Below are positions 1,052 to 64,000 of a stretch of DNA of 64,000 bases, one piece after another. Where the stretch lies: contig CAWEYG010000001.1 of NCBI GenBank assembly GCA_963813155.1, positions 480,001 through 544,000 of the forward strand, written 5' to 3'. Under the pieces are notes generated by a model that saw only the letters and a program-made list of their open reading frames with translations, did not search any database and was not told the origin of the DNA. The position numbers and the translations under genes are program-made. Source of the stretch: an uncultured Acidobacteriota bacterium. GTDB lineage: Bacteria; Acidobacteriota; Thermoanaerobaculia; UBA5066; DATFVB01. Each line of letters opens with the position of its first letter. The stretch's first letter is position 1.

Positions 1052-1059
1052 TTCGCCGG

Positions 1060-1169
1060 GCGGGTGGCGCGGGGCGAGACCCCCTTTTGCCGCTCGCGAC
1101 GCAGGTGTAGCAAAGTCATTAGGCTCGCGGCGAGCGGAAAAGCGGGGCGAGTCCCGCGACAGGACCCGC
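1060..1169 (-). repeat. Structured intergenic repeat, copy A (core hairpin only)
   Basis: Reverse complement GCGGGTCCTGTCGCGGGACTCGCCCC..TTTTCCGCTCGC...GCGAGCGGCAAAAGGGGG..GCCCCGCGCCACCCGC matches copies near 7987, 10081 and 29739. Confidence 0.85.
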
Positions 1170-3088: not shown

Positions 3089-5286
3089 ATGTCCAGCCGC
3101 CGGTCCGCCCTGGCCGCCTGCTTTCTTCTCCTGGTTCCGGCCTTGAGCTTCGCCACCGAATCTTCCGCGCCGGCGACGGCGGCAGCCGGGAACCCGCTGC
3201 TCGCGAAATGGACCGGCCCCTACGGCGGCGTCCCGCCGTTCGACAAGGTCAAGGTCGCCGACTTCAAGCCCGCGCTCGAGGCGGCGATGGCCGAGAACCT
3301 GGCCGAGATCGACGCGATCGCGAACAACCCGGCGACGCCGAACTTCGAGAACACGATCGCCGCCCTCGAGCGCGCCGGAAAGCCGTTCGAGCGCGTCTCG
3401 ACGATCTACGGCATCTTCCGCTCGACGATGAGCTCGGACGACTTCCAGACGGTCGAGCGGAGATGGCGCCGAAGCTCGCGGCCTTCGACGACCAGATCGT
3501 CCAGAACGAGAAGCTCTTCGCGCGCATCAGCGCGGTCTACGACGCCCGCGAATCGAGCGGGCTCACGCCCGAGCAGAAGCGGCTCGTCTGGCTCGACTAC
3601 ACGCAGCTTCGTCCGCGCCGGCGCGAAGCTCGAGCGGCGCGGCGAAGAAGCGCGTGGCGGAGATCAACCAGCGCCTCGCGACGCTCTTCACGAAGTTCAG
3701 CCAGAACGTGCTCGCCGACGAGAAAGACTACGTCGCTCTTCCTCGACAGGGAGGCCGACCTCGCCGGCCTGCCCGAGTCCGTCGCGGGCCGGCGCGGCCG
3801 CCGCCGCCGAGACGCGCGGGCACAAGGGCAAGTGGGCGATCCTGAACACGCGCTCCAGCATGGAGCCGTTCCTGACGTACTCCGACCGCCGCGACCTGCG
3901 CGAGAAGGTCTGGCGGACCTTCTACAACCGCGGCGACAACGGCGACGCGCACGACAACAACACGATCATCACGGAGATCCTGAAGCTGCGCGCCGAGCGG
4001 GCCAAGCTGCTCGGCTACGCGACCCACGCCCACTGGCGGCTCGAGAACAGCATGGCGAAGACGCCCGAGCGCGCGATGGAGCTGATGGAGGCGGTCTGGA
4101 AGCCCGCGGTCGCGCGCGTCCACGAGGAGGTCGCCGACATGCAGGCGATCGCCGACGCAGCGGCGCGAAGGCGGCGCGAAGATCACGATCGAGCCCTGGG
4201 ACTACCGCTACTACGCCGAGAAGGTCCGCAAGGCGAAGTACGACCTCGACCAGAACGAGGTCAAGCCGTACCTGCAGCTCGAGAAGCTGCGCGAGGCGAT
4301 GTTCTGGGTCGCGGGCGAGCTCTTCGGGCTTCGCAGTTCACGCCCGTCGACAGACGTGCCGGTCGTACCACCCGGACGTGCGCGTCTGGGAGGTGACCGA
4401 CGCCGCCGGCAAGCACGTCGGCCTCTGGTACTTCGACCCGTACGCGCGGCCCGGCAAGCAGCTCGGGCGCCTGGATGAACGCCTACCGCGCCCAGGAGCG
4501 CTTCGACGGCGAGGTCACGACGATCGTCTCCAACAACGCGAACTTCGTGAAGGGCAAGCCGGGCGAGCCGGTCCTGATCAGCTGGGACGACGCCGACGAC
4601 GCTGTTCCACGAGTTCGGCCACGCGCTGCACGGCCTCCTGTCCGACGTGACCTACCCGTCGCTGTCGGGCACGACGGTCGCGCGCGACTACGTGGAGTTC
4701 CCGTCGCAGCTCCTCGAGCACTGGCTCGCGACGCCCGAGGTGCTGAACCGCTTCGCGCTGCAACGTACCAGACGGGCAAGCCGATCCCGAAGGAGCTCGT
4801 GGAGAAGATCGAGAAGGCGTCGACGTTCAACCAGGGCTTCGCGACCGTCGAGTACCTGTCGACGGCGCTCGTCGACATGAAGCTGCACCTCGCCGGCGAC
4901 GCCGACAAGACGATCGACCCGCACGCGTTCGAGCGCGAGACGCTCGCCGCGCTCGGCATGCCGACGGAGATCGTCGATGCGCCACCGCACGCCGCAGTTC
5001 GCGCACATCTTCTCGAGCGACGGCTACTCGGCCGGCTACTACAGCTACCTCTGGGCCGACACGCTGTCCGCCGACGCCTTCGAGGCGTTCACCGAGGCCG
5101 GCGGCCCCTACGACAAGGCCGTCGCGCAAGCGGCTGCGCGAGAACGTCTTCTCCGTCGGCAACACGGTCGACCCGGCCGACGCTTACCGCGCGTTCCGCG
5201 GGCGCGACCCGGGAATCGCCGCGCTGATGCGCAAGCGCGGGTTTCCGGTGCCCGCAGCCGCGCCGGCCTCGGGCGGGGCTCCCTAG
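3089..5286 (+). CDS. dcp: M3 family metallopeptidase (peptidyl-dipeptidase Dcp-like), many frameshifts
   Basis: Fragments across frames: [66 protein letters not shown]. Confidence 0.85.
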
Positions 5287-5290
5287 AAGA

Positions 5291-5800
5291 CTACCGGCCG
5301 CTAGCGAAGAGGCGGACCTCCTCGGGATCGTTCGGAAGGCGGATCCGGCGCTCGAAGCGCAGCCCGAGCTTCTCGAGCACCTTCACGGAGCGCTCGTTGT
5401 CGAGCGACGTGATCGCGAGAATGCGCGAGAAGCCCAGGACGTCCCGGCCATAGGCCACCGCCGCGGCCGCGGATTCGTACGCGAAACCTTTGCCCCGGAA
5501 GGCGGGGAGAAACGCGAACCCGACGTCGACGTCGTCGAGAGTGTCTCTCTTGAGCAGCCCGCAGATTCCCGCCGGCTTTCCGCTCTCCTTTACCTCCACG
5601 AGACACAGGCCGATGCCGAGGCGCTCGTACATGTCCATCGGGCCCTTCCGGATGTAAGCCTGTGCTTCCTCGGTCGTTCGCACGCCGCGGTCGCCGATGA
5701 ATCGCAGCCAGTCGGGGTCGTTCAGGAGCTCGAGGATGAACTCCGCGTCGTCCGGCGTCAGCCGGCGAAGGATGAGTCGATCCGTTTCGAGGCGCCGCAT
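5291..5800 (-). CDS. GNAT family N-acetyltransferase (RimJ/RimL-like)
   Basis: [27 protein letters not shown]. Confidence 0.9.
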
Positions 5801-7939: not shown

Positions 7940-8321
7940 GGGCTTCGCTCGGCCCGCTCGGTCCAGCCCCAGCGCCGGCTCGGCAAGCGGGTCCTGTCGC
8001 GGGACTCGCCCCACTTTTCCGCTCGCTGCGTTCTAAGGCCTTTGCGACGACTCCGGCCGCGAGCGGCAAAAGGGGTCTGCCCCGCGCCACCCGCCCTTCT
8101 AGCCCGGCGCTTCAACCTCGCTCAGCTCCTCTGGCGAAGGGAGTGGCCAGGATGGAGCGGTGCGAGGCGGTCTGCGCCGAAAGGTGGTTCGAGCTGGAGG
8201 CGCAACTGGAAGGCTCCTGTTCCCTCAGCGAGCGAGGCCGAGCGAATCCCGAAGGCGCGAGCCTCTTCGAGGGAGGCGCCGAAGACCCGCGGGGTCTTGC
8301 GCTCTCGGGCCGAGCGAGCCC
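7940..8321 (+). repeat. Structured intergenic element with terminal inverted repeats, copy B (MITE/REPIN-like or ncRNA)
   Basis: Starts GGGCTTCGCTCGGCCCG, ends CGGGCCGAGCGAGCCC; conserved core hairpin and 3' arm GGAGGCrCCGAAGAC shared with other copies. Confidence 0.8.
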
Positions 8322-9939: not shown

Positions 9940-10478
9940 GGGCTTCGCTTGGCCCGATTGGCGGCCCCAGCCCGCAGCGGCGCTCGGCAGTTCCTCGCTC
10001 GCCGAAAAGAACTCGCCCATCGGGCTTCACCTCGGCAACCGCTCACCGAGGGGGGCTTCGGGGACTTCGAGCGAACACATCCGCTCACATGCGACTCTGG
10101 GGCTTTGCAACGACTCCGCGCCGCGAGCGGCAAAAGGGGGTGCCCCGCGCCACCCGCGACTTCTTGCGCCGGCGTGTTGGAGCCCCGACCCTCGCGGGTC
10201 GTTGCGGGCTCAGGAGATGGGGCTCCAACTCCGCGGGAGGAGGGTCGCGAGAGAGGGAATCGGTTGTCTGAGGCGCCGTCTCGTGCGCCGACCCAAGGTG
10301 GAAGCTCGAAGACCGAAGAGCGCGAAACCGGGAAAGCCGTCCCTGTTCACACTGCAGCGGTCGGCGCAAGGCGACGAGTTCCGATTCCCGAAGGAGCGAC
10401 CGCCTCCCGCGCGCTCCGTCGACGGAGGCACCGAAGACTCCGCCAGGGGCTTCAGTCGCTCTCGGGCCGAGCGAACCC
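9940..10478 (+). repeat. Structured intergenic element with terminal inverted repeats, copy C (longest)
   Basis: GGGCTTCGCTTGGCCCGA ... TCGGGCCGAGCGAACCC; shares GGCTTTGC.ACGACTCC..GCCGCGAGCGGCAAAAGGGG and the 3' arm with copy B; unique hairpin-rich middle. Confidence 0.8.
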
Positions 10479-12231: not shown

Positions 12232-13276
12232 GCGATTCTTTGATTTCACAAACGAAGTGCAACACCTTCTGATGGGGGTGCTGCGATGGGGCGCCAATAC
12301 GGGCAGCTTGGGATCCAGGAACGGTGTGAGATTGCCCGGCGTCGCTGCGCCGGGCAATCGATCCGGCAAATCGCGGCAGGTCTGGATCGCGCGCCATCGA
12401 GCGTTGCTCGGGAGCTGAAGCGCAACAGCACGACGTCGGGCGGGTATCAGCCCGTTTACGCCGGTCAACAGGCCAAGGCACGGCGCTGGACCGGCAGCAA
12501 ACTGTTGCGTCGGCCCGACCTCCAGGCTCTGGTCTTGGACCGCCTCAGTCAGGGATGGTCGCCGCAGGAGGTCGCCGGCAGGCTCGCGCGCGAAGAAGGC
12601 CGGCCGGTTGTCAGTCATGAAACCATTTATCGCTTCATCGCCGCTCAGATCGCTCGCACCAAGGATTACTCCTGGCGGCTCTACCTCCCCCGCGGCAAGA
12701 GCAAGCGCGGCCGACGCTCCCCAAAACACGGCAACTCGACCGTGCACATCCAAAACCGTGTCCCCATTGCTCTGCGACCCCCAGAAGCCAGTGACCGAAC
12801 CAACCCTGGCCATTGGGAGGCCGATCTCATGCTCTTTGCCACCTATGGGCAGGCCGTCTTGGCCCTTCACGAACGTACTTCTTGACTGACGGTTATCCTG
12901 CGTCAACAAAGCAAGGCCGCCGCACCTCTTGTCTCTACCATCGAAAATCTTCTGCGACCTCTTCCCCCGTCCCTGCGCCGCACCGTGACCTTCGACAACG
13001 GAACCGAGTTCGCTTTCCATCACCGCCTGGGGAAAACCCTCGGAGTCGAAACATTCTTTTGCGATCCACGGTCTCCTTGGCAGAAGGGCGGAGTCGAAAA
13101 TGCCATCGGCCGGCTTCGTCGCTTCCTCCCCCGAAAAACCGACCTGGCAGTCCTTCCCACGAGCCAAATCCTCCGCCTTGCCCAACTCTACAATCACACA
13201 CCTAGGAAATGCCTTGACTTCCAAACCCCGGCCGAGGTCTTCTCTCATCTGTTGCACTTCAAATGTGAATCCACCT
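12232..13276 (+). mobile_element. IS30 family insertion sequence, copy 1
   Basis: Matches 15771..16815 with only one difference seen; imperfect IRs TTTCACAAACGAAGTGCAACA / TGTTGCACTTCAAATGTGAAT; exact ends uncertain. Confidence 0.9.
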
Positions 13277-15770: not shown

Positions 15771-16815
15771 GCGATTCTTTGATTTCACAAACGAAGTGCA
15801 ACACCTTCTGATGGGGGTGCTGCGATGGGGCGCCAATACGGGCAGCTTGGGATCCAGGAACGGTGTGAGATTGCCCGGCGTCGCTGCGCCGGGCAATCGA
15901 TCCGGCAAATCGCGGCAGGTCTGGATCGCGCGCCATCGAGCGTTGCTCGGGAGCTGAAGCGCAACAGCACGACGTCGGGCGGGTATCAGCCCGTTTACGC
16001 CGGTCAACAGGCCAAGGCACGGCGCTGGACCGGCAGCAAACTGTTGCGTCGGCCCGACCTCCAGGCTCTGGTCTTGGACCGCCTCAGTCAGGGATGGTCG
16101 CCGCAGGAGGTCGCCGGCAGGCTCGCGCGCGAAGAAGGCCGGCCGGTTGTCAGTCATGAAACCATTTATCGCTTCATCGCCGCTCAGATCGCTCGCACCA
16201 AGGATTACTCCTGGCGGCTCTACCTCCCCCGCGGCAAGAGCAAGCGCGGCCGACGCTCCCCAAAACACGGCAACTCGACCGTGCACATCCAAAACCGTGT
16301 CCCCATTGCTCTGCGACCCCCAGAAGCCAGTGACCGAACCAACCCTGGCCATTGGGAGGCCGATCTCATGCTCTTTGCCACCTATGGGCAGGCCGTCTTG
16401 GCCCTTCACGAACGTACTTCTCGACTGACGGTTATCCTGCGTCAACAAAGCAAGGCCGCCGCACCTCTTGTCTCTACCATCGAAAATCTTCTGCGACCTC
16501 TTCCCCCGTCCCTGCGCCGCACCGTGACCTTCGACAACGGAACCGAGTTCGCTTTCCATCACCGCCTGGGGAAAACCCTCGGAGTCGAAACATTCTTTTG
16601 CGATCCACGGTCTCCTTGGCAGAAGGGCGGAGTCGAAAATGCCATCGGCCGGCTTCGTCGCTTCCTCCCCCGAAAAACCGACCTGGCAGTCCTTCCCACG
16701 AGCCAAATCCTCCGCCTTGCCCAACTCTACAATCACACACCTAGGAAATGCCTTGACTTCCAAACCCCGGCCGAGGTCTTCTCTCATCTGTTGCACTTCA
16801 AATGTGAATCCACCT
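15771..16815 (+). mobile_element. IS30 family insertion sequence, copy 2
   Basis: Direct repeat of copy 1 at offset 3539 bp; intact transposase. Confidence 0.92.
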
Positions 16816-16835
16816 TCCCGCGTGCGCGGGAATGA
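15825..16835 (+). CDS. IS30 family transposase
   Basis: HTH SIRQIA..L.R.PSSVARELKRN; GHWEADL, TFDNGTEF, PWQKGGVEN, N.TPRKCLDFQTP (DDE). Confidence 0.95.
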   Translation: MGRQYGQLGIQERCEIARRRCAGQSIRQIAAGLDRAPSSVARELKRNSTTSGGYQPVYAGQQAKARRWTGSKLLRRPDLQALVLDRLSQGWSPQEVAGRLAREEGRPVVSHETIYRFIAAQIARTKDYSWRLYLPRGKSKRGRRSPKHGNSTVHIQNRVPIALRPPEASDRTNPGHWEADLMLFATYGQAVLALHERTSRLTVILRQQSKAAAPLVSTIENLLRPLPPSLRRTVTFDNGTEFAFHHRLGKTLGVETFFCDPRSPWQKGGVENAIGRLRRFLPRKTDLAVLPTSQILRLAQLYNHTPRKCLDFQTPAEVFSHLLHFKCESTFPRARE

Positions 16836-19043: not shown

Positions 19044-19313
19044 ATGGACGACCGTCCCTGCCCGCACCTCGCCGCCGTGGAGACCGTGCGGCACGCCAAA
19101 CGCCGGGAATGCGAGGAATGCGTGAAGATCGGCGCGCAGTGGGTCCACCTGCGCACGTGCCAGCAGTGCGGCGCGACGCTGTGCTGCGACTCCTCGCCGA
19201 ACCAGCACGCGAGCAAACACGCGAAAGCGACCGGCCACCCGGTGATTGCCTCGGCGCAGCCCGGCGAGCGGTGGCTCTATTGCTACCCGGACGACGCGAT
19301 GGCGGAGTACTGA
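19044..19313 (+). CDS. UBP-type zinc finger protein
   Basis: CPHL, CEEC...WVHLRTC..CG...CCDSSPNQHASKH, W.YCYPD. Confidence 0.92.
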   Translation: MDDRPCPHLAAVETVRHAKRRECEECVKIGAQWVHLRTCQQCGATLCCDSSPNQHASKHAKATGHPVIASAQPGERWLYCYPDDAMAEY

Positions 19314-19331
19314 GGCGGATCCCCGCGGCGG

Positions 19332-21554
19332 CTAGCCCTGGGACGCCGAAATCTCGCGATTCGCGAAGTCCAGCCGATCGGCGAGCGCGCGCACCACGAA
19401 CCGGTGGAACGCGAGGGCGAGCTGAGGATCCTCGGCCTCCATTCGCTCGAGAGACGAGCGGGACAGCCGGAGCACCTCGGTGGGCTGGTCCGCGAGAACG
19501 CGCGCGCCGCGTGGCGCCGTGCGGTAGAGGCCCATCTCTCCGACGATCGTGTGCCGGTGCATCGATCGCAGCCGCGACTCGTTCCCCTCGGGAGAGCGAA
19601 AGATGACACTGACCCGGCCGGAGGAGATCAGGCAGAGAAACTCCGCCGGGTCTCCCTGGACGAAGAGCGTGTCGCCCGCCCCGTACGACACCGCTTCGAG
19701 GTAAGCGCCGAGCCGTCGAAACATTTCCGGTCCGCCCATCTCGTGGACGAGCCATTCTTCGGCGGACCGCTTCGCGTCTTCGGGCCCGGTCCGCTCCTCG
19801 AGCAGGCGTTCCTCGCACCATTCGAGCGCGGCGTCGAGCTCGCGGAAAACCTGGCAGGCTCCGTCCCCGGCGCGCAGCAGGCCGCCCGAACGGAGCTGCC
19901 CCCCGACCCTCGAGCCGAGGCCGGAGAGCACGAGGACGAAGCCCTCGCGCTCGGCGAACTGGCGCATCTTGACGAGCACTTTCACGGCCGACGTGTCGAT
20001 TCCCAGGACATGGCGAAAATCCAGGATCACCCGGCTGCAGGCCCCGCGACCCCGAGTGGACACGGTTTTTTTGACGTGCTGCAGGAGCGCGTTCACGCTC
20101 CCGAAGAAGATGAAGCCCTGGAGCCAGATGATCTGGATGGCGTGGCCGTTGCGAACGAGCTCGCGCGTCTCGCCCACGGATCGGAGCACGCGGCTCCCGA
20201 ACTGGCTTCGGTCCTTTTCCTGCCTCACGAGGCCCACGCGGCTCGTGTTGATCGCGAACGTCACGCACGCGGCGATGATGCCAAGAGCCACGCCCGCGAT
20301 GAATCCCTCGATCGCGATCGCGAGCAGGATGATGACGACCTGCGCGTAGTCCGCGCGGTCCATGCGCTTCCATCCCTGGACGAACCAGTCGTCGAGGAGA
20401 TCGGCCCCGAGCCGGATCAGCATTCCGCCGAGGATCGGAATGGGAACCCAGCCGAGCGCGCCCGTCCCGAACGCGAGCGCCGCGAGGCACAGGGCCGCCG
20501 CGACGGCTCCGCCGAGGCGGCTGCGCGCGCCGTTCTGGTAGTTGAACAGCGTTCGACTGAGCGAGAGGGTCCCCGCCATGCCGCCCGCGAGCCCCGCGGC
20601 GAGGTTCGCAATTCCGTTCACGCGCAGCTCTCGGTCGATGTCGACGTCGTCGCCGAACTGCGTGTCGACCTCGATCGACGTGATGCCGAGCACCAGGGTG
20701 AACGCCGTCACGACGATGAGGGCGATCGCTCCGCCCGTTTCTCTCAGCAGAAGAGCCGCCGGGGGCGCCTGCCAGTGGCGGGCGAGCCAGACGATCGGAA
20801 TCACGGCCTGCCGCGGCATCTTCAGCAGCCAGCCGGCCGCCTGGGCGTCGCCGATCGAAATGCCCGCCAGCGCCCGGCCGGCGTGGGCCAGCGCGATCGT
20901 CCCGACCAGAAGGGCCGGAAAGGCGATTCCCCTTCGGCTTCGCTCAGTCGCGGCGAGGGCAAGCGCAAAGAGGATCCCCGCGCCGAGCTGCGCGAGCCGG
21001 ACGGGCGTCGCGAGCTCCCGGAGAGTCGCCCACCCCGGCTCGACGCGGGTGAGAATGCGCACCGCGCTGACGATCAGGAGCCAGCCGGAGGCCGCCATGA
21101 ATCCCCCGACGACGGGAAAAGGAACGAAGCGGATCCACCGGCCGATCCGGAATCGGCCGCAGAGGTAGAGGACGAGGCCGTTGAGGATCGCGGCGCCCAC
21201 CAGAACGAGGAGAGCGATCGCCGCGGTTCCCTCCGCTCCGCCCGCGAGGTGAAGCGACGCGGCGGAGCCGGCGACGCCGACGGCCATCAGCGCCAGGACC
21301 GCCGTGGGCTTGGAGTCCGGCCCCCCCACCGCGAAGGGAATGCCGCTGCGGGCCGCGAAGATCGCGGCCGAGATCGCCGCGCCGAGCAGGCCGTATCCGA
21401 TTCCGACGGGAAGAAACGCCGCCAGGGGCCCGGAAAAGACGGCGGCGGCGTAGCTGACGGAAGACGCGATCAGGAAAATCGCGGTGAGGAGACCGGCGCC
21501 GATCTCTTTCGATCGCGCGATCGGAACGCTGCCGCGGTCAGCCGTGTCGTTCAT
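19332..21554 (-). CDS. SulP family anion transporter with STAS and cNMP-binding domains
   Basis: [39 protein letters not shown]. Confidence 0.92.
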
Positions 21555-21663
21555 TCTTCCGGTCCGGCGGATTCTAGTTCACCGTCGCGGGCCGGGATGT
21601 GAAGTTCCCGTGAAGCCTGCGAGGAAGGATCCGATCCGCTCGGGCGGGACTAGAATCCCAGGC

Positions 21664-22299
21664 ATGCACGAGACACTGAACGACGAAGCCCTGGACCGGA
21701 TCTTCCGCACCGCCCGGACGCACAGCGCGTGGCTGGACAAACCGGTCGGCGACGACACGTTGCGCCGGCTCTACGACCTGATGAAATGGGGCCCGACGAG
21801 CGCGAACACCTGCCCGGCGCGGTTCGTCTTCCTCCGGTCGCCGGAAGCCAAAGAGAGGCTCCGGCCGGCGCTCGCCCCCGGCAACGTCGAGAAGACGATG
21901 AAAGCACCCGTCACCGCGATCATCGCCTACGACCTCCTGTTCTTCGAGAAACTGCCGAAGCTGTTTCCGCACAGTCCCACCATGCGCGATCATTTTGCCC
22001 GGAACCCCCAGCTCGTCGAGGTCACCGCGAAGCGCAACTCCTCGCTGCAGGGGGCATATCTGCTGATCGCGGCCCGTGCGCTCGGCCTCGACTGCGGCCC
22101 GATGTCCGGCTTCGACAACGCGAAGGTGGACGAGGAGTTCTTCGGCGCCGGCAAGGAATGCGAGGGGTGCGAGCAGGAGTTCTTCCCGGCCGGCCACGTG
22201 AAGTCGAACTTCCTCTGCAACCTTGGCTACGGGGACGCTTCGAAGCTCTTCCCCCGCGGACCGCGGCTGGCTTTCGAAGAGGCCTGCACGCTGCTGTAG
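21664..22299 (+). CDS. rutE: Nitroreductase family, malonic semialdehyde reductase (RutE-like)
   Basis: [45 protein letters not shown]. Confidence 0.8.
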
Positions 22300-22339
22300 C
22301 GCCTCGCTCCAGGTGTATTCTCGACCCGGAGACGCTTCG

Positions 22340-24031
22340 ATGACCGACACGGCCAGAACTCCCGTCATTTCCCAACTCTCCTCCGAGCGTTTCGCGGAGA
22401 TGTTCCCCACTCTCACGGCGGAACAGGTCCGCCGGGTGGCCGCGGTCGGGCGAGCACGCCCCGTCGAGGCCGGCGAGGTGCTCGTCGAACCGGGCGACCA
22501 CGACGTTCCCTTCTTCGTCGTCACGCGCGGAGAGCTCGAAATCGTCCGGCCTTCGAATCCGAACGAAGGAGAGATCTTCATCGCCGCGGTCCAGCCCGGA
22601 ATGTTCACAGGCGAAGTCAGCATGCTGTCCGGGCGCCGGGTGATGGTCCGGATCGGCGCGAGCGCGGCCGGCGAAGTCGTCGAGGTCGCTCACGACCGGC
22701 TCCTGACGCTCATCCAGACCGACGCCGAGCTGGGCGAGATCGTGTTGAAAGCCTTCATCCTTCGCCGCGTGGACCTGATCGCGCACGGATTCGGCGACGT
22801 CGTGCTGCTCGGCTCGAACCACTGCGCCGGGACGCTTCGCCTCAAGGAGTTCCTGACTCGAAACGGACATCCCTACGCCTTCGTCGACCTCGATCGGGAA
22901 GACGACGTCCAGGCGCTCCTCGACCGTTTCCAGGTCGCGCTCGAAGACGTGCCCGTCCTGATCTGCCGCGGCAAGACCGTGCTCCGCAATCCGAGCAACC
23001 AGCAGATCGCCGACTGCCTCGGCCTGAATGCCGCGATCGATTCCGAAAAGGTCCGCGACCTCGTGATCGTCGGGGCCGGACCCGCCGGGCTCGCGGCCGC
23101 CGTCTACGGAGCCTCGGAAGGGCTCGACGTGCTGGTCGTGGAATCCAACGCTCCCGGCGGCCAGGCCGGGCTCAGCTCGAAGATCGAGAACTACCTCGGC
23201 TTTCCGACCGGCATTTCGGGCCAGGAGCTCGCGGGACGCGCTTACACGCAGGCGATCAAGTTCGGCGCGCAGCTCGTCGTCGCGAAGGGGGGCAAGCGCC
23301 TCGCGTGCGCGCGGAGGCCGTATGCGATCGAGGTCGAGGACGGCTCCCGGGTAGCGGCGCGCGCGGTCATCCTCGCGACCGGCGCCGACTATCGCCGGCT
23401 CGCCGTCGAGAACCTGTCCCGGTTCGAAGGGGCGGGCGTTTACTACGGCGCGACGTTCGTCGAGGCGCAACTGTGCAAAGCCGAAGACGTCATCGTCGTC
23501 GGCGGGGGAAACTCGGCCGGCCAGGCCGCGATGTTCCTCTCGCAGACCGCGCGGCGCGTCTACATGCTCGTGCGTTCGACGGGCCTCGCGGCGAGCATGT
23601 CGCGGTACCTGATCCTCCGCATCGAGCAGAACCCCGCGATCGAGCTGCACACGTCGACGGAGATCGAAGCGCTCGAAGGAGATTCGCGCCTCGAGCGGGT
23701 GCGCTGGCGCGACAAGACCGCGGGCAAGGCCGAGACGCGGGAGATCCGCCACGTCTTCGTGATGACCGGCGCGGTGCCGAGCACGGGCTGGCTCGATCGC
23801 TGCGTCGCGCTCGACGAAAAAGGTTTCGTCAAGACCGGGCCGGACCTGTCGCCCGAGGACCTCGCCGCGGCGAAGTGGCCGCTCCAACGTCCGCCGCACC
23901 TGCTCGAGACGAGCCTGCCCGGAGTTTTCGCGGTCGGCGACGTGCGCGGGGGCAACGTGAAGCGGGTCGCTTCGGCCGTCGGGGAGGGATCCATCGCCGT
24001 GTCGTTCGTGCACCGGGTGCTGAGCGAATAG
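22340..24031 (+). CDS. Thioredoxin reductase-like FAD oxidoreductase with N-terminal cNMP-binding domain
   Basis: GAGPAGL, SSKIENYLGFPTGISG, GGGNSAGQ, GVFAVGDVR.G.VKRVASAVGEG. Confidence 0.92.
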   Translation: MTDTARTPVISQLSSERFAEMFPTLTAEQVRRVAAVGRARPVEAGEVLVEPGDHDVPFFVVTRGELEIVRPSNPNEGEIFIAAVQPGMFTGEVSMLSGRRVMVRIGASAAGEVVEVAHDRLLTLIQTDAELGEIVLKAFILRRVDLIAHGFGDVVLLGSNHCAGTLRLKEFLTRNGHPYAFVDLDREDDVQALLDRFQVALEDVPVLICRGKTVLRNPSNQQIADCLGLNAAIDSEKVRDLVIVGAGPAGLAAAVYGASEGLDVLVVESNAPGGQAGLSSKIENYLGFPTGISGQELAGRAYTQAIKFGAQLVVAKGGKRLACARRPYAIEVEDGSRVAARAVILATGADYRRLAVENLSRFEGAGVYYGATFVEAQLCKAEDVIVVGGGNSAGQAAMFLSQTARRVYMLVRSTGLAASMSRYLILRIEQNPAIELHTSTEIEALEGDSRLERVRWRDKTAGKAETREIRHVFVMTGAVPSTGWLDRCVALDEKGFVKTGPDLSPEDLAAAKWPLQRPPHLLETSLPGVFAVGDVRGGNVKRVASAVGEGSIAVSFVHRVLSE

Positions 24032-24032
24032 C

Positions 24033-25656
24033 TTGACCGCGATGGACGGTCAACTGAATTCTCCGGCCGCGGCGCCGGCAAGCCCGTGGCGGCCGCTGAA
24101 GACCCGCGTCTTTCGCGATCTCCTGCTCGCCAATTTCGTTTCCGACATCGGGGCCTTCATGCAGGGAGTCGGCGCCGCCTGGCTGATGGTGTCGCTCAAG
24201 GCGGGCCCGCTGAACATTGCGCTCATTCAGACCGCCTCGGCGTTGCCGTTCTTTCTCCTCGTGCTTCCCGCGGGCGCCGTGGGCGACATCGTGGACCGCC
24301 GGCGGCTGATCCTCGTCACGGAGTGGTGGATGCTTGCGGCCGCGCTCGTCCTCGCCGTGCTCACGTTCCTCGGCATGATGACGCCGTGGCTTCTTCTGGC
24401 GTCTGACGTTCCTCCTGTCCGCGGGAGACGCCTGCGAAGCTCCCTCCTGGAGGGCGGTCCTTCCCGAGCTGGTCCAGCGCGAGGACTTCGCCTCGGCCTC
24501 GGCCCTGAACGGAATCGAGTTCAACCTCGCCCGGGCGGTCGGCCCCGCGCTCGCCGGGCTGCTCGTCGCGGCCGCCGGCGCCGGAACGGCGTTCGCCGTG
24601 AACGCCGTGTCGTTCCTCGGCGTCATCGTCGTGATCCTCCGGTGGAAACGGCCCGCCCGGCAAAGCACGGCGCCGGCCGAGACGCTCGGGGGCGCGACGG
24701 TCGCGGCGTTCCGCTACGTTCGGCATTCGCCGGCGATCCGGATCGTGCTCGTGTGGGCGGGAACCGTGATGTTTTTCGCGTCGGCCCTGATGGCGCTTCT
24801 CCCCGTGGTCGCCCATCGGCTGAGCGGGAGCTCCCTCGGCTACGGGTTGCTCCTCGCGTTCTTCGGGTCCGGCGCGGTGGGCGGGGCGATGGTCATGCCG
24901 CGGTTGCGCGCCCGTTTTTCGACGCCCTCTGTCCTTTCGCTCGCTCTGGCCGCGCTGAGCGCCGCGCTCCTGGCAACCGGCGCCGTTCGGAGCCTGCCCG
25001 CGCTTTGCGCTTTTCTGATCTTCGGGGGAGCAGCGTGGATCGTCTTCATCTCGACGCTCAACACGATGATGCAGCAGCTCGCCCCCTCGTGGGTTCGGGC
25101 GCGCGTGCTCGCGGCGTTTCTCCTGGTCTTTCAGGGAAGCGTGGCGCTCGGGAGCATCGTCTGGGGCCTCGCCGCGGAGCGGCGAGGCATTCCTTTCGCG
25201 CTCACGCTCGCGAGCGCGGGGACTGCCGCTTCCATCCTGCTTCGCTTCGTCGCGCGCCTGCCGAACGCGGACCTCGACGTGACCCCCTGGGTTCACTGGA
25301 ACGCGCCCCCGGGCTCGCTCCAGACCGGCGCGGGCGACGGACCGGTCCTCGTGACCGTCGAGTACCGCGTGGACCCGGAGCACGCCGCGACGTTCCTCGA
25401 AGCCGTCCACCGGCTGGGGCGCCTGAGACGCCGCGACGGCGCCTCGCGCTGGGGAATCTTTCGGGACACGGAAACCCCCGACCGGTACGTCGAGACCTTC
25501 GTGGTGAGCTCCTGGGCCGAGCATCTGCGCCAGCACGAGCGGTCGGTGCACGCGGATCGGCCCGTGGAGGAGGCCGTCCAAGGCTCGGCGCGGGAGAAGC
25601 CGACCGTCCGGCACCTTCTTTACGCGCGGCGGGACGAGTCTCGATCCTCTGGCTGA
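24033..25656 (+). CDS. MFS transporter (MFS_3) with C-terminal soluble domain, frameshift near 24405
   Basis: SDIG.FMQ.VGAAWLM, GD.VDRR, FNLARAVGPA, RRRDGA.RW..F.D, W.EHLRQHER. Confidence 0.88.
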
Positions 25657-25726: not shown

Positions 25727-26430
25727 ATGACGATCGAGATCCAGCGAGCCGAGGAACGGGGCCGCACGGAATGGGGATGGCTCGACAGCCGGCACACCTT
25801 CGCCTTCGGCGAGTACCACGACCCCGGGCGCATGGGATTCCGCGCGCTGCGGGTCTTGAACGACGACCGCGTCCAGCCCGGCCAGGGCTTCGGCACGCAC
25901 GGTCACCGCGACATGGAAATTCTGTCGTACGTTCTCGAAGGAGCGCTCGAGCACAAGGACAACGCCGGCGGCGGCGGCGTGATCCGCCCGGGTGAGATCC
26001 AGTTCATGCGCGCGGGCACAGGCGTGATGCACAGCGAGTTCAACCATTCCGCGACCGAGCCCGTGCACTTCCTCCAGATCTGGATCATTCCCGACACGCG
26101 GGGTCTCGCGCCGGCCTACGGACAGCAGGCGTTCGACCGCGAAAAAGCGAGCCGGTCCTTCGTGCTGCTCGCGTCGAGGGACGGTCGAGACGGAAGCATC
26201 CGGATCCAACAGGATGCGGACGTCTGGGTCGCGCTCCTCGGCGAAGGACAGAAGCCGCGAGCTCGCGATCCGGCCCGGACGGGGCGCGTGGGTCCACGTC
26301 GCGCGCGGATCGGCGTCGCTCAACGGAAATCGGATGCGCGAGGGAGACGGCGCGGCGGTCACCGTCGGAGGAGACGCTGCGGCTCGTCGGAGAGGGATCC
26401 GCCGAGGTGCTTGTTTTCGACCTGAAGTAG
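25727..26430 (+). CDS. Pirin family protein (YhhW-like), frameshifts near the 3' end
   Basis: WLDSRHTF.FG.Y.DP, GFGTHGHRDMEI, AGTGV.HSEFN, LQIWI. Confidence 0.9.
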
Positions 26431-26434
26431 ATCC

Positions 26435-27826
26435 ATGAGAACGTCGCGCGGCCTCGCGGCCCTCGCGCTTTTCGCCCTCTCCTGCACGGCGCACGCTCCC
26501 CTGCGGTCCGTTCCGGGAGCCGTCGTCACGTCTTCCGAGAGGCTCGGCCGCCCCGAGGGGCGGAAGGAAGCGGCGCGCCATTCGATCGAGCGCCATCCCG
26601 ATTTCACGCTCTCGTTCGTGGAATTCGACGACCAGGGCCGCTTCTGGGACCGGAGACAGCTCGAGGAGCTCGAACGGACGCTCGAAGCGGAATCGAGAGC
26701 GGCGGACGGGCGGGTGATCGTCGCGGTTTTCGCGCACGGCTGGGAACACGACTCCGCCGTCTGCGACGAAAACGTCGCTTGCTTTCGCGCTTTTCTCGCG
26801 CAGCTCGCGCGCGACGCCGGGGCGCTCACGCGATTGTCGGCGGGGCGGCTCGCTCCGCGAAGAGTCGTCGGCGTCTATGCGGGATGGCGCGGGCGCTCGG
26901 GAACCGTTCCGGTCTTGCGCGAGCTCACGTTCTGGGCGAGGAAGCGCGCGGCGCTGCGGATCGGCGGGGGCGACCTGATCGAGCTCCTGACACGCGTCGA
27001 CGCCTTCGTGAAGAGGACGAACGTCGACGGAGCCGATCGGGCCCACATGATGACGATGGGCCACAGCTTCGGCGGGACGATGGTCTACGCGGCGCTCGCG
27101 AACATCCTGAAGGCGCGGCTCGTCGAGGCGCTCGACCGGCAGGACAATCCGGATCCGCGCGCGACGATCGTCCAGGGCTTCGGGGACCTCGTCGTCCTGA
27201 TCAACCCCGCCTTCGAAGCGTCGCTCTACCTCACGCTGCACGAGCTGTCGAATTCCTTGAAAAGGCTCTCGCCCCTGCAGGGACCGGTCCTCATCACGAT
27301 CGAGTCCGAAACGGACCGACCGAACCGGACGTGGTTCCCGCTCGGCCAGATGCTCGCGACACTCTTCAATCGGGCCGCGAACCGGACCGAGCGAATCGCC
27401 CTTCGGACGGCGGTCGGCAACGACAAGGATTTCTGGGACTATCGACTGACGGCAGCGCCCGGCGAGCCGACGCCTCCTCGCGCAAGCTCCGACTCGTTCG
27501 GCGCAAGCGCCAACTGTTCGTGCGATCTGAACCTCGAGACGAGCGACGCCGAGTTTCGGAGCCTGCTGTCGATTCTGGCGCCGCCCGTATCGGACCGCCG
27601 GGAAAACGGGTCGGCCTCGCCGGCCCTCCCGGACGGAATCGCCCGATACGGAAGAGCGGAGCTCACCTGCCTCAAGCCCCACGACCGCCGCAGCCCTTTC
27701 TGGGTCGTCCGCGCGAGCGACGAAGTGGTCCACGAGCACAGCGGAATCTTCACGAAGTACCTCATGGACTTCATCCGCCACGTCATCCTCGAAGAGCTGG
27801 AACGAGAGGGCCGAGCCGGCCGGTAG
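26435..27826 (+). CDS. Lipoprotein with alpha/beta-hydrolase fold
   Basis: Lipobox ALSC; FVEFDDQG, FAHGW, GHSFGG nucleophile elbow, LINPAFEA, late His (HSGI). Confidence 0.75.
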   Translation: MRTSRGLAALALFALSCTAHAPLRSVPGAVVTSSERLGRPEGRKEAARHSIERHPDFTLSFVEFDDQGRFWDRRQLEELERTLEAESRAADGRVIVAVFAHGWEHDSAVCDENVACFRAFLAQLARDAGALTRLSAGRLAPRRVVGVYAGWRGRSGTVPVLRELTFWARKRAALRIGGGDLIELLTRVDAFVKRTNVDGADRAHMMTMGHSFGGTMVYAALANILKARLVEALDRQDNPDPRATIVQGFGDLVVLINPAFEASLYLTLHELSNSLKRLSPLQGPVLITIESETDRPNRTWFPLGQMLATLFNRAANRTERIALRTAVGNDKDFWDYRLTAAPGEPTPPRASSDSFGASANCSCDLNLETSDAEFRSLLSILAPPVSDRRENGSASPALPDGIARYGRAELTCLKPHDRRSPFWVVRASDEVVHEHSGIFTKYLMDFIRHVILEELEREGRAGR

Positions 27827-29093: not shown

Positions 29094-29119
29094 TGGTACG
29101 CTATCCGCGAGGTAACGCG

Positions 29120-29698
29120 ATGACCTGGATCAAGACCATCCCCATGGCGGAGGCGGACGAAAAACTCAAGCGCGCGTGCGAAAAACAGCGCGAGTTGTAC
29201 CCCGCCGAATACGCGGAGTCGGTTCCCGGGGCCGAGATCCGGCGGGACGGCGAGATGTCGGGCGTCGTCGGAGCGCACAGCCTCATTCCCGACGCGCTCT
29301 ACCACGCGTTCGCGACGTTCGGTGTGCTGATGTCGCCCGAGCTTCCGCTGACCCGACGCCAGCACGAAATGATCACGACCGTCGTCTCGGCCGTGAATCG
29401 CTGCGTCTATTGAACGGAGTCTCACGCAGAGTTTCTGCGTCGGGTGACTCTGGACGAGGAGCTGGTCGGGGCGCTGCGCGCCGACTATCGGAAGGCCCCG
29501 ATCAACGAGCAGGATCTCGCGATGCTCGATTTCGCCGCCCAGCTGACGAAGGATTCCACGAAGATCCAGCCGCGCGACCATGACCGGCTGAGGGAAGTCG
29601 GCTTCGACGACCGCGGCATCCTGCAGATCACGCTGATCGCGTCGTGGTTCAACTACATCAACCGCGTCGCGGACGCGCTCGGAGTCGGGAGAGAGTAG
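29120..29698 (+). CDS. AhpD/carboxymuconolactone-decarboxylase family peroxidase, probable selenoprotein (CVYU)
   Basis: Two ORFs in the same frame joined by one TGA (29411-29413): [30 protein letters not shown]...L.FA..LT...GFDD..I..I....[14 protein letters not shown]. Confidence 0.85.
29414..29450 (+). promoter_or_regulatory. Putative bacterial SECIS element
   Basis: GAGTC..ACGCAGA-GTT-TCTGCGT..GACTC hairpin; apical-loop G follows a 17-nt spacer after UGA. Confidence 0.7.
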
Positions 29699-29888
29699 AG
29701 TTCGCTCGGCCCGCTCGGGCCCAGCGCCGGCTCGGCAAGCGGGTCCTGTCGCGAGACTCGCCCCACTTTTCCGCTCGCTGCGATTTGAGGACTTTGCTAC
29801 GACTCCGCGCCGCGAGCGGCAAAAGGGGGTCTTGCCCCGCGCCACCCGCCCTTCTACCGCCGGCGCATTAGCTCCGTCGCTCTCGGGC
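29699..29888 (+). repeat. Structured intergenic element, copy D
   Basis: TTCGCTCGGCCCGCTCGG..CCCAGCGCCGGCTCGGCAAGCGGGTCCTGTCGCG.GACTCGCCCCACTTTTCCGCTCGCTGCG nearly identical to copy B; ends GTCGCTCTCGGGC. Confidence 0.85.
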
Positions 29889-29942: not shown

Positions 29943-31440
29943 GTGGAAGAATTTCGTCGAATCGCCGCCCTTCTGATCGCGCTCGCGCTCCCGGCTGCGC
30001 TGGGCGCGCAGGACCCCGGCCGGGCGCCCGAAATGGAATTCGCGAGCGGGTTTGCCAACGTCTCCCTCGTCTCTGACGAGACGCCGCCTCCGCCCGTCGA
30101 TCCCAACGCGCACGGCACCGCGCCGATGCAGGGGCACGAGACGACGGCGCCGAGGCCGAAGCACTTCTTCACCGGCGTTTCGGAAATCGTCCTGCTCGAG
30201 GCGATCCCCTGGGCCTTCGATCGATACGTCGACAACGAGGACTTCTCCCGCATCTCCACGCACACCGTGAGCGAGAATTTCCACCGTGGCTTCGGGTTCG
30301 ACCGCGATCACTTCAATGTCAACCAGTCTTCGCACCCGTACCACGGCAGCCTCTTCTTCGAAGCCGGGCGATCGAACGGTTACACGTACTGGGAATCCGG
30401 TTTTTTCGCGCTCGCGGGAAGCCTCGCGTGGGAATGCTGCATGGAAAACGACCGCCCGTCCACGAACGACGTCGTGAACACGACGCTCGGCGGCATGACG
30501 CGCGGCGAGATCTCGCACCGGCTTTCGATCATGATTCTCGACAACACCGCTAGCGGGATCGAACAGATTCTTCCGAGAGCTCGGAGCGGCGATCGTCAAC
30601 CCCGTCAATGCGCTTTCGCGCCTCGTCCACGGCGACATGACGCGCGACTATCCGAACCCGGAGGAGCGCTTCCCGAACAGCTTCAGCATCGCGGCCGATA
30701 TCGGCTACCGGCACATCGAGCCGGACGCCGGACATCCGAATCAGGGGACGCTGTCGTTCTCGGCCCTGTACGGAGATCCGTTCGGCGGGGATATCCAGAA
30801 GCCTTTCGATTCGTTCTGGGTCGGGTTCGACGTGAACACTCCGGGCGGCACCTCCATTTCCCGCATCGAGGAGCGCGGCATCCTGAAAGGCTGGGAGCTG
30901 ACCGACCCTTCCGACTCCGCGCGCCACATCTTCGGCTTCGCTCAGGAATATGAGTACCTGAACAACGAATCCCAGGTCGTCGGCGCCCAGATGTTTTCGG
31001 CCGGCCTGCTCTCGCGCTACAAGATCGGCAAGCTCGCGGCGGCGACCGATTTCAGCCTGCTCGCGATTCCGCTCGCGGGAATCCGAACGACCGACTTCGA
31101 GAATCCCGAGACGGGCCGCAACTACGATTACGCGCCGGGGGGCGGCGTCCGGGCGGCCGTGCGGCTCTTCGGAGGCGCGCGCGAGCTCCTCGCGGTGGGT
31201 TACGGCGTCGCCTGGGCTCACACGGTCAACGGAGTTTCGAAGAACAACACGCTGCAGTTTTTTCGCGCGACGGCGCGGATCCCGATCGCGGGGCCGCTCG
31301 GCGTCGGCGGAGGGTACTGGTGGTACAGCCGGCAGACGACCTATGCCGGCTTCGCCGAACCGCGGAAAACGCAGTCGGAATGGAGAGCCTTCCTGAATCT
31401 CGCGTTCGGCGGCTCGGACCTTCGCAAGACCGGAAACTGA
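29943..31440 (+). CDS. DUF3943 domain outer-membrane protein, frameshift near 30565
   Basis: FD.D.F.VNQ..HPYHGSL.F..GRSNG..YW, GSL.WE...E...PS.ND..NT.LGG...GE. Confidence 0.8.
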
Positions 31441-53037: not shown

Positions 53038-55404
53038 ATTTGGCCTCCCATTTCCAGTCCCGGATCTCTGGCAGGTCTTCGCCGTATTTGCAGATGTATT
53101 GCTGGTGCTCGATCAGCTTGCCTCTGAGCAGGCGCTTCAGGGCGATGCCCTTCTCGCCCGTCTGCGGGAGGCGGTCGATCGTGTCGATGACGAGGTCGAA
53201 CCGGTCGAGATCGTTCAGAACCGTCATGTCGAAGGGCGTGGTGATCGTCCCTTCTTCCTTGTAGCCGCGGACGTGGATGTTGTCGTGGTTGGTTCGGCGG
53301 TAAGTCAACCGGTGGATCAACCACGGATACGCGTGGAATGCGAAGATCACCGGCTTGTCCCGGGTGAAAAGCTCGTCGAAATCCCTGTCGCTTAGCCCGT
53401 GGGGGTGCTCGGATTGCGGCTGCAGCTTCATCAGGTCGACGACGTTGACCACCCGGATCTTCAGGTCGGGCAGGTGTTCGCGCAGGATGGAGACGGCGGC
53501 GAGCGTCTCCAAGGTGGGCACGTCGCCGCAACAGGCCATGACCACGTCGGGCGCAACGCCCTGGTCGTTGCTGGCCCACTGCCACACGCCGATGCCTTCG
53601 AGGCAGTGCTTGACGGCAGCGTCCATGGCCAGCCATTGCGGCGCGGGGTGCTTTCCCGCGACGATGACATTCACGTAGTGCCGGCTGCGAAGGCAATGAT
53701 CCATCACCGACAGGAGGCAATTCGCGTCCGGTGGAAGGTAGACGCGCACGACCTCGGCTTTCTTGTTCACGACATGATCGATGAAACCGGGATCCTGATG
53801 CGTGAAACCGTTGTGGTCCTGACGCCAGACATGCGAGGCGAGCAGGTAGTTCAACGACGCGATCTTCCGCCGCCAGGGCAGGTGCGAGGTGACCTTCAGC
53901 CACTTGGCATGTTGATTGAACATCGAATCGACGATGTGGATGAACGCCTCATAGCAGTTGAAGACGCCGTGCCGGCCGGTGAGCAGATAGCCCTCGAGCC
54001 AGCCCTCGCACTGGTGTTCGCTCAGCATTTCCGTCACGCGCCCGGTCGGCGCGAGAAATTCGTCGTTGGGCAGGGTGGCCGCATCCCACTGGCGGTTGGT
54101 CGTCTCGAAGACAGCCTCGAGGCCGTTGGACAGCGTCTCGTCGGGTCCGAAGACCCGGAAGTTCCGCCGGTCCGAGTTGAGCTTCGCCACGTCTCGTAGA
54201 AAACGGCCGAGGACGTGCGTGTCGCCGACGCCGCGCACCCCGGGAGACGGCACGTCGACTGCATACTCGCGAAAGTCCGGCATCCGCAGATCTCGGAGCA
54301 GAATTCCACCATTGGCGTGAGGGTTCGCGCCCATTCGCCGATTCCCCTTCGGCGCGATTTCGGCCAGCTCCGGGCTCAGGCGGCCGTTCGCGTCGAAGAG
54401 CTCTTCCGGCCGGTAGCTCTTGAGCCAGTCCTCCAACAGCCTGAGATGATCGGGAGGGGTCGAGGGAGAAACGGCGAGCGGCACCTGATGCGCTCGAAAC
54501 GTTCCTTCGATCGGCCTACCGTCGACCATCTTCGGCCCGGTCCATCCTTTTGGCGAATCGAGAACGATCATCGGCCAGCGGGGGCGGGTGACGACACCGC
54601 GGACGCGAGCGTCCTGCTGGATTTCCCGGATTCGCTCCACCGCCGCGTCGAGAGCAGCGGCCATCGCCTGATGCATCGGTTCCGGCTCGCGCCCTTCGAC
54701 GAAGCCGGGCTCCCAACCGTAGCCGCGAAGAAGGTCCGCCAGCTCGGCGCGGGGAATTCGGGCGAGAATCGTCGGGTTGGAAATCTTGTAGCCATTCAAG
54801 TGCAGGATCGGAAGCACCGCGCCGTCGGTGGCCGGATCGAGAAACTTGTTCGAATGCCACGCGGTCGCCAGAGGGCCGGTTTCCGCCTCTCCGTCACCGA
54901 CCACGCAGGCCACGACGAGATCCGGATTGTCGAAAACAGCCCCGAACGAATGGCTGAGCGAATAGCCGAGCTCTCCCCCTCGTGAATCGAGCCCGGGCAC
55001 TCCGGAGAGGCGTGACTGGGAATCCCTCCGGGAAACGAGAATTGAAGAAACAGCCTTCGGAGGCCGGCCTCGTCCTGGCCGATATCGGGATAGACCTCGC
55101 TGTACGTGCCCTCGAGGTACGTGTTGGCCACCACGGCCGGCCCGCCGTGCCCCGGACCGGAGACGTAGATCATGTCCAGGTCGTATTTCTTGATGACTCG
55201 GTTCAAGTGCGCGTAGATGAAGTTCTGCCCCGGCGTCGTCCCCCAGTGTCCGAGAAGCATTCGCTTCACATCCGCCAGCGTCAGGGGGCGCTTCAAGAGC
55301 GGGTTGTCGTAAAGATAAATCTGGCCGACCGACAGGTAGTTGGCCGCGCGCCAGTACGCATCGATGAGGCGCAACTGCTCGTCGGAAAGCCGGCTCTCGC
55401 CCAC
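53036..55404 (-). CDS. xfp: Phosphoketolase, frameshift near 54985
   Basis: [73 protein letters not shown]. Confidence 0.93.
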
Positions 55405-62371: not shown

Positions 62372-64000
62372 ATGCACCGGTATGTGATTCTTTTCCTCGC
62401 CGCTGCGGCCGCCACGGCGGTGTTCGCGGCCGAGGCGCCGAAATCCGATCTCGAGGGCCGCCGGAAGGCCCTGAACGACCTGCTCGCCGAGCAGTGGGAT
62501 TACACGATGGAGACGAACCCGGAGTACGCGTCGATCCTCGGCGACAAGCGCTGGAACGACAAGTCGAGCGACAACTCGCTCGCCGCCGTTCAGAAGGACC
62601 TCGTCAAGACCGCGGAATTCCTGAAGCGCTTCCAGGCGATCGACACGACCGGCTTTCCGGAGCAGGAGAAGCTGAACAAGACCCTGATGGTCCGGCAGCT
62701 CGAAGAAGGGCTCGAAGGCGCGAAATTCAAAAACTGGGAGATCCCGGTCGCCCAGAACTACGGCATCCAGATCGAGGCGCCGCGGTTCGTGAACTACCTC
62801 CCGTTCGACACCGTGAAGGACTACGACGACTACATCACCCGCCTGAAGGACCTGCCGAAACAGTTCGAAGACACGATGGACAACATGCGCGCCGGCATGG
62901 CCGACGGCCTCATGCCGCCGAAGTTCCTGCTGGAGAAAGTCGTGCCGCAGGCGGAAGGCATCGCGTCCCAGGACCCGGAGAAGAGCCCGTTCGCGCAGCC
63001 GCTCGCGAAGTTTCCGAAGACGGCTTCCGCCGAAGACCAGAAACGCATTCACGACCAGGTCATCGCCGCGATCCGGGACGCGGATCCTTCCCGAGTACGT
63101 GAAGTTCGCGAAGTTCGTCAAGGACGAGTACGCCCCGAAAGGACGCACCGAAGTCGGGATCTGGTCGCTGCCCGACGGCCCGGCGCGCTACGCGTTCCGG
63201 GTGAAGCAGTCGACGACGACGAACCTGACCGCGGAGGAGATCCACCAGATCGGCCTGAAGGAGGTCGCGCGGATCGAAGGGGAAATGCAGAAGATCGCGA
63301 AGAAGAGGGGTTTCGCGGACATGAAATCCTTCAACGACGCGCTCGCGAAAGACCCCGCCCACCACGGCCACTCCCGCCAGGAGTTCATCGACCTCTACAC
63401 GAAATACATCGACCAGATGTCGGCGAAGCTCCCGCAGCTCTTCGGGCGGCTGCCGAAGGCGAAGGTCGTCGTGAAGCCGACGGAGGAGTTCCGCGAAGCG
63501 ACGGCTTCGGGCGCCGAGTACAACCAGGGAACGCCTGACGGTTCGCGGCCGGGCACGGTCAACGTGAACACGAGCGACTTCGCGAAGCGCACGACGATCA
63601 ACGTGGAAACGACCGCGTACCACGAAGGCGTGCCGGGACATCACATGCAGATCTCGATCGCGCAGGAGCTGCCGACGATTCCTCCCTTCCGCCAGCAGGG
63701 CGGCAACGGCGCCTACGTCGAGGGATGGGCGCTCTACTCCGAAGATCTCGGCCGCGACGTCGGGTTCTACCAGGACCCGTACCAGCTCTACGGCCACTAC
63801 CAGGACGAGATGCTCCGCGCGATCCGCCTCGTCGTCGACACCGGATTGCACGCGAAACACTGGACCCGCGACCAGGTCGTGAAGTTCTTCCACGACCACT
63901 CGGGAACCGACGAGGTGGAGGTCCAGAGCGAGACGGATCGCTACATCTCGTGGCCGGGCCAGGCGCTCGGCTACAAGATCGGCCAGCTGACGTTCTCGCG
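62372..64000 (+). CDS. DUF885 family protein (metallopeptidase-like), frameshift near 63085, truncated by window end
   Basis: Signal peptide; IHQIG..EV, YHEGVPGHH.Q, YVEGWALYSE, R.IRLVVDTG.H...W, RY..WPGQA..YKIG. Confidence 0.92.

Follow-up and report, generated by a model that had tools for sequence, protein, structure and literature searches.

A predicted AhpD-like selenoprotein gene with a highly conserved SECIS hairpin in an uncultured Acidobacteriota bacterium

Introduction

AhpD-like selenoproteins have been met several times in bacterial sequence data. A family named as an AhpD-like protein (TIGR01926) with CxxU is listed in Table 1 of PMC13188914 as predicted and not experimentally verified, an AhpD-like selenoprotein was predicted in the Sargasso Sea study, where an AhpD-like SECIS appears in a figure (PMC1088965), the GOS data yielded 299 AhpD-like 1 and 70 AhpD-like 2 sequences (PMC2398784), and BSepDB has an AhpD-like family page (PMC13326102). 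The kind of gene considered here is thus already known, and the TIGR01926 CxxU family of PMC13188914 agrees with a preliminary description of this DNA, which had taken AhpD-like selenoproteins as established. For the phylum itself, one Acidobacteriota genome is counted among the users of selenocysteine (Sec) (PMC12013277), and four selenoproteins were counted in Acidobacteria (PMC1794560).

Among related proteins, the catalytic relay has been described as Glu36, Cys48, Tyr50, Cys51, and His55 in PA0269 and as Glu118, Cys130, His132, Cys133, and His137 in Mycobacterium tuberculosis AhpD (PMC3141380), and relay residues are also described in PMC6300522. AhpD is fed by lipoamide, and a DR1765 deletion is H2O2-sensitive, with a rescue that needs CxxC (PMC8945050).

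Here we analysed 64,000 nt of an uncultured Acidobacteriota bacterium (GCA_963813155.1, contig CAWEYG010000001.1, positions 480,001 to 544,000), which we call the window and whose own numbering is used below. Our main reading, to which we give a probability of roughly 0.88, is that it holds one AhpD-like (TIGR01926) gene with a Cys-x-x-Sec site, in which UGA-98 would be read as Sec by means of a hairpin. Among the papers listed in our literature search, none dealt with this clade of Acidobacteriota or with the invariance of its SECIS; BSepDB or the listed representative MCB9421940.1 may already cover these genes.

Results

One reading frame interrupted by TGA

The frame opens with ATG at 29120, meets an in-frame TGA at 29411-29413, and closes with TAG at 29696-29698. 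Translation with TGA as U gives 192 aa including NRCVY-U-TESH, which reproduces the pair of same-frame ORFs parted by TGA at 29411 in the preliminary description. Translation table 11 splits the gene into one ORF that ends at 29413 and another that begins at GTG 29444. Such a split had been expected of standard annotation, and it really occurs, since 29 of the best 150 library representatives stop exactly before the TGA column and 3 begin just after it. The features of the frame are as follows.

29120 to 29698, plus strand: single coding sequence of an AhpD-like peroxidase-related (seleno)protein, TIGR01926, 192 aa when read through
29109 to 29113, plus strand: Shine-Dalgarno-like GAGGT, present in the sequence 6 nt before the ATG, putative in function
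29411 to 29413, plus strand: in-frame TGA, predicted Sec98; TGA in 80 of 80 GTDB loci, Cys in 63 of 120 protein homologs

The relatives come from a GTDB scan that returned at least 588 among 599 stretches; the best 80 loci (68-78% identity, 78 assemblies by accession prefix) were analysed, and together with the window gene they make up the set of 81 genes used throughout. They comprise 69 loci from Acidobacteriota, 6 from Gemmatimonadota, one each from Armatimonadota, Planctomycetota, and Vulcanimicrobiota, and 2 unassigned. Two assemblies hold two TGA-bearing gene copies each (L009 with L028, and L025 with L034), and extra in-frame stops occur in the loci L019 and L043, through either decay or assembly errors. 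The surroundings of the TGA are biased against the GC3 preference of these genes, with TAT directly before it in 76 of 81 genes compared with 23% TAT elsewhere, and A directly after it in all 81. As a guess, this TAT-TGA-A context may reduce termination.

The protein and its relay residues

The read-through protein, with C written for U, scores 118.1 bits against TIGR01926 (cut-off 81.8; model positions 30-173 of 178), while its separate halves score 29.1 and 69.5 bits, both under the cut-off. Pfam CMD also matches the read-through protein, and full-length protein homologs are found at 62-74% identity. The best PDB sequence matches are 2PFX, 2OYO, 3C1L, 2PRR, and 6K40, and in the three PDB alignments shown the TGA column is the second Cys of CxxC. 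The placement of the TGA at the second Cys of the AhpD CxxC...H motif, as first proposed from the sequence, is borne out by these alignments as well as by the 63 of 120 homologs with Cys. An AF2 model, again with C for U, has a pLDDT of 79.7 and an all-helical AhpD-like fold; its top Foldseek matches are 2PFX, 6K40, and 3C1L (TMq 0.70-0.76), and it places a predicted two-helix hairpin at residues 79-92 and 96-110.

The window protein carries the relay pattern E83, C95, Y97, U98, and H102, whose spacing equals that of the relays in PA0269 and M. tuberculosis AhpD (PMC3141380). Its four sense residues, E83, C95, Y97, and H102, are invariant in all 81 genes. Two of them are placed as follows:

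29366 to 29368, plus strand: Glu83, putative proton-relay residue (equivalent to M. tuberculosis Glu118 and PA0269 Glu36), E in 81 of 81 genes
29402 to 29404, plus strand: Cys95, which opens the CxxU motif; C in all 81 genes and in 112 of 120 protein homologs

In 8 of the 63 homologs with Cys at the TGA column, Thr takes the place of the first Cys (TxxC). Three neighboring families were tried and rejected: NF041238 AhpD_rel_CFYUT (63.1 bits, cut-off 175), NF053654 YciW-related (seleno)protein (29.5 bits, cut-off 310), and TIGR00777, the mycobacterial type of AhpD (21.1 bits, cut-off 191.95).

The TGA column among relatives

The pairing of TGA with Cys that one expects of a Sec codon was found in the homolog alignments called for by the preliminary description. 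Codon 98 is TGA in 80 of the 80 best loci out of at least 588 GTDB relatives, and the same column in the best 120 of 1025 protein homologs reads Cys in 63, Trp in 54, and Leu, Ser, or a gap in one each; some of the Cys rows could be Sec records displayed as C. A plasmid search for close Cys-codon DNA controls gave 310 records, all below 60% identity, and these were left out of the comparison.

The Trp rows have a peculiar origin. None of the 54 has a source contig above 2138 nt (53 JGI, 1 ENA). Of the 59 Cys proteins for which a length is stated, 41 are encoded on contigs longer than this. The Trp rows also carry the residue signature of the TGA genes, and they interleave with the TGA loci (20 changes) on trees from which columns 96-108 and 33-47 were left out. 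We infer that they are TGA genes translated under table 4 by a gene caller that chose this table on short contigs. Gly stands at the Sec column (CxYG) in 7 of 150 library representatives, as a real inactive variant or as TGA under table 25.

In FastTree, the 81 TGA genes, the 54 Trp rows, and 16 of the 63 Cys rows form one clade with a support of 0.996. Despite this, IQ-TREE gave no strongly supported set containing the window gene and placed 7 changes between the Sec type and Cys, and so we claim no direction for the evolution between Sec and Cys.

The hairpin after the TGA

A hairpin follows the TGA directly and overlaps the codon of the relay residue His102.

29423 to 29440, plus strand: SECIS core, codons 102-107 including His102; 7-bp stem of 29424-30 with 29434-40, GUU loop at 29431-33
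29417 to 29450, plus strand: optional lower stem of 29417-21 with 29446-50, present here; 57% of cells paired over 81 genes

Its position, the 17-nt spacing from the UGA to the loop G, and the loop G itself are as first described, and the stem has 7 bp and a GUU loop. The GAGTC/GACTC extension proposed along with it folds here in the centroid structure, but it is not a conserved part of the element, since only 3 of 81 genes could form all five pairs and 57% of the cells are paired. The core stem has 99.8% of its cells paired over the same genes, and the folding z-scores are -2.6 for 42 nt and -3.15 for 23 nt.

The criteria given for bacterial SECIS elements are a loop of 3-9 nt, a stem of 4-16 bp, G in the first two loop positions, a spacing of 16-37 nt, and an MFE <= -7.5 (PMC13188914), and all 81 genes agree with them (a 3-nt loop that begins with G, a 7-bp stem, a spacing of 17 nt, and an MFE <= -8.8). 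Hairpin geometry alone is nevertheless weak evidence, because a loose implementation of these rules fits 611 of the 1202 TGA triplets in the window (51%; the window is 66% GC). A strict rule, with a 7-bp stem, a spacer of 16-18, and a loop that starts with G followed by G or T, leaves 6 of the 1202, among them the site at 29411. Another 20 window TGAs were listed with a Cys three residues away, and of these 21 sites in total only 29411 looks coding; its GC2 is 0.44, compared with 0.66-0.95 for the other 20.

It is the conservation of the hairpin, not its geometry, that lies far beyond chance. The 18-nt core is the same in 79 of 81 genes and differs by a single base in the other 2, these relatives not being independent of each other. 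The most frequent codon at each of codons 102-107 reaches a fraction of 0.99-1.0, against values below 0.98 in all 75 other conserved degenerate columns; 4-fold sites in these genes are saturated, with a median identity of 0.37. The core even keeps codons that are rare in these genes (GCA at 10%, TTT at 30%, and CGT at 10% of usage), and codon usage would lead one to expect core identity in 0.04 of the 81 genes. The peptide HAEFLR, encoded by these codons, occurs in all 81 TGA genes, in 54 of 54 Trp rows, and in 26 of 63 Cys rows. Of its 1152 possible encodings, one gives 7 Watson-Crick pairs together with the loop G, and this is the natural one (8 do so if G-U is allowed). The hairpin is thus nucleotide-invariant because the peptide and the RNA stem overlap and leave one synonymous encoding.

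The two variant cores differ in kind: in one an A-U becomes G-U and pairing is kept, and in the other (L066) the closing pair is broken. No two-sided compensatory change was found in the core stem of the 81 genes; 5 of its 7 pairs are constant, and covariation in this nearly invariant stem did not score above shuffles (156/500). A search for the 18-nt core with up to 4 mismatches in the window and the 80 loci gave no second TGA-linked copy, the sole extra match listed being the reverse strand of the same hairpin.

Sec machinery and genomic surroundings

Rfam and ARAGORN gave no tRNA and no Rfam match in the 64-kb window. Searches by tblastn with E. coli SelA, SelB, and SelD found none in the window, and among the window and the 80 loci they found them at L079 only; with up to 10 kb scanned on each side, this is the 1 locus of 80 with sel genes nearby. 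L079 is from an Armatimonadales MAG, and its selA, selB, selD, and tRNA-Sec(UCA) are oriented convergently with the gene and start 0.85 kb downstream of it.

L079, 11430 to 16981, minus strand: selA-selB-selD-tRNA-Sec cluster, by tblastn and Rfam

The tRNA-Sec scores 73.9 bits against an Rfam cut-off of 47. The selD of this cluster carries an in-frame TGA as well (at 12519, in the context G-U-A-A-K), and the hairpin behind it has a G loop of 3 nt, again with a spacing of 17 nt. The hairpin geometry therefore suits the system of at least one carrier, which is L079 and not the organism of the window. As this selD SECIS shares geometry but not sequence with ours, and as a second TGA-linked copy of the core is lacking, the core is not shown as a genome-wide SECIS.

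In the window, the gene is flanked by genes for an EamA transporter and a DUF3943 protein, not by ahpC. Within 4.5 kb, the window and the 80 loci share no conserved neighbor beyond frames that overlap the gene, and the family most often seen in the flanks is present at 27 of the 80 loci. A promoter scan gave no promoter-like site, and a terminator scan gave two minus-strand terminator-like matches where 0.7 were expected.

Several other features of the window were observed. A hairpin-rich intergenic repeat, which we take to resemble a REP/MITE-type element, begins right after the gene's stop (29701-29866, about 115-170 nt), with copies at 7944-8110 (plus strand), 1058-1169 (minus strand), and 10080-10198 (plus strand); the copies are 81-90% identical to each other and have no Rfam match. 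A transposase-like ORF, presumably IS30-like, is present in two copies, at 12286-12885, where it breaks off at 199 aa, and at 15825-16835 (336 aa). A redox-flavored cluster at 19044-24031, 5-10 kb upstream, holds a zf-UBP protein, a SulP-STAS-cNMP transporter, a nitroreductase, and a cNMP-binding pyridine nucleotide-disulfide oxidoreductase. Genes that look frameshifted lie at 3089-5453, 24033-25656, 25727-26438, 29943-31440, 53039-55404, and 62372-64000 and are of peptidase-like, MFS, pirin, DUF3943, phosphoketolase, and DUF885 types, which suggests indel errors in the assembly.

Discussion

The pairing of TGA with Cys among relatives, the position of the codon in the motif, and the geometry of the hairpin support the selenoprotein reading of the CxxU gene put forward in the preliminary description, and we regard Sec insertion at codon 98 as very probable. 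In mechanistic terms, the 7-bp hairpin with its GUU loop just after the UGA would recruit SelB-GTP-Sec-tRNA(Sec), and UGA-98 would then be read as selenocysteine and not as a stop. What we observe at the locus is its sequence, conservation, and geometry; SelB binding and selenium insertion would follow by extension of the pathway established in bacteria. In its function the product most likely resembles AhpD-family proteins. A relay of Glu83, His102, and water would activate the CxxU center, which would cycle between a reduced and a selenenyl-sulfide state, and the protein may reduce peroxides directly or hand electrons to a partner peroxidase, with electrons probably drawn from a lipoyl/NADH system. 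This chemistry is proposed by analogy with M. tuberculosis AhpD, PA0269, and DR1765.

Given Sec, a role in peroxide or thiol redox chemistry is likely. The alternative that survives best accepts Sec at this position but assigns the protein another redox role, for instance in reductive dehalogenation or in exchanging disulfides with one particular partner. The debrominase Bmp8 (6OHI/6OHJ) has the same fold (TMq 0.72), the H2O2 activity of PA0269 is only weak (PMC3141380), and neither ahpC nor another redox partner is a conserved neighbor, but the closest structures belong to the peroxidase-related group at 28-34% identity, as against 15% for Bmp8, and the H2O2 sensitivity of the DR1765 deletion is CxxC-dependent (PMC8945050). 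We therefore consider a non-peroxide role unlikely, though it is to be taken seriously.

Far less probable is that the UGA is read as Cys or another residue by a route that resembles SECIS and SelB and needs no selenium, for example with a selC*-type tRNA(Cys) that has a UCA anticodon. Such tRNAs exist, non-canonical allo-tRNAs have been reported in Acidobacteria (PMC7609411), and the 64-kb window holds no Sec machinery of its own. However, the selC* tRNA(Cys) described in the same source is placed in Firmicutes, Thermodesulfobacteria, Nitrospirae, and Proteobacteria (PMC7609411), and the L079 locus, where gene and machinery are linked, has a canonical tRNA-Sec, SelA, and a Sec-type SelD.

We give even less credit to a true stop, whether in a naturally split gene, in a pseudogene, or through sequencing error in an error-prone assembly. 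This would fit the frameshifted appearance of several other window genes, the storage of the halves as separate proteins in databases, and the extra stops of two relatives (L019 and L043), but the same TGA stands in 80 of 80 loci. Moreover, the first in-frame ATG, GTG, or TTG after the TGA lies between codons 109 and 135, and thus a separate 3' protein would always lack His102, which makes a natural split unlikely. Across the 81 genes the 3' half also keeps its residues while the synonymous sites around them vary freely. A reassigned code, with TGA as Trp (table 4) or Gly (table 25) and an inactive CxxW variant, would account for the Trp in 54 of 120 database homologs but can largely be dismissed. 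Of the 81 genes, 38 end their downstream frame in TGA and all have TGG for Trp176, and 16 other genes of the window use TGA as a stop that comes no earlier than the end of the Pfam match; the Trp proteins, none of which has a source contig above 2138 nt, are interspersed with TGA loci on the tree.

With Sec at codon 98 as the preferred reading, a wider interpretation can be offered tentatively, at slightly less than even odds: the gene would mark a large, mostly misannotated selenoprotein clade that is frequent in Acidobacteriota, chiefly in Blastocatellia, and extends to four further phyla, and its fully locked SECIS would be portable across the SelB proteins of unrelated phyla. Cultured Blastocatellia are largely aerobic soil bacteria. 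If this interpretation is true and the carriers are largely aerobic soil bacteria too, a Sec-dependent antioxidant would be widespread among them, in contrast to the view that aerobes "rarely retain selenoproteins" (PMC13188914), and the 18-nt core could be used as a DNA marker for Sec use in soil metagenomes. A correction of annotation would also be in order, as the clade is stored in two halves or, it seems, under erroneous CxxW translations. Because the family is predicted only and lies outside the verified part of the table in PMC13188914, a compact member of 192 aa that has Cys counterparts in nature would serve well for asking what the AhpD relay gains from Sec. No new mechanism is involved, but the invariant SECIS is a clean case of a protein code and an RNA code that together fix one sequence.

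Among the known systems compared, M. tuberculosis AhpD (TIGR00777) has a similar relay of Glu, Cys, Cys, and His in a two-helix hairpin but differs in topology (TMq 0.42-0.45); the window gene also lacks an ahpC neighbor and has Tyr at the His132 position. The families NF041238 ("CFYUT") and NF053654 share CxxU in an AhpD-type hairpin with the window protein, which falls far below both cut-offs; the NF041238 model is 357 positions long. The Cys-type peroxidase-related proteins 2PFX, 2OYO, 3C1L, 2PRR, 6K40 (D. radiodurans DR1765), and PA0269 have a similar fold (TMq 0.63-0.76), and the relay pattern E-x11-C-x-Y-C-x3-H is common to the window protein and to the 2PFX group and PA0269, from which it differs in having a predicted Sec-coding TGA for the second Cys and in an identity of about 25-34%. 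The AhpD-like selenoprotein family has the same TIGR01926 model, CxxU, one predicted Sec, and a bacterial SECIS right after the UGA. Within that family, the window gene may be set apart by its clade (66-78% identity within it), which consists mostly of Acidobacteriota and Gemmatimonadota MAGs and has a nucleotide-invariant 18-nt SECIS. It is a well-supported further member of a known predicted selenoprotein family, with a SECIS shared across five phyla.
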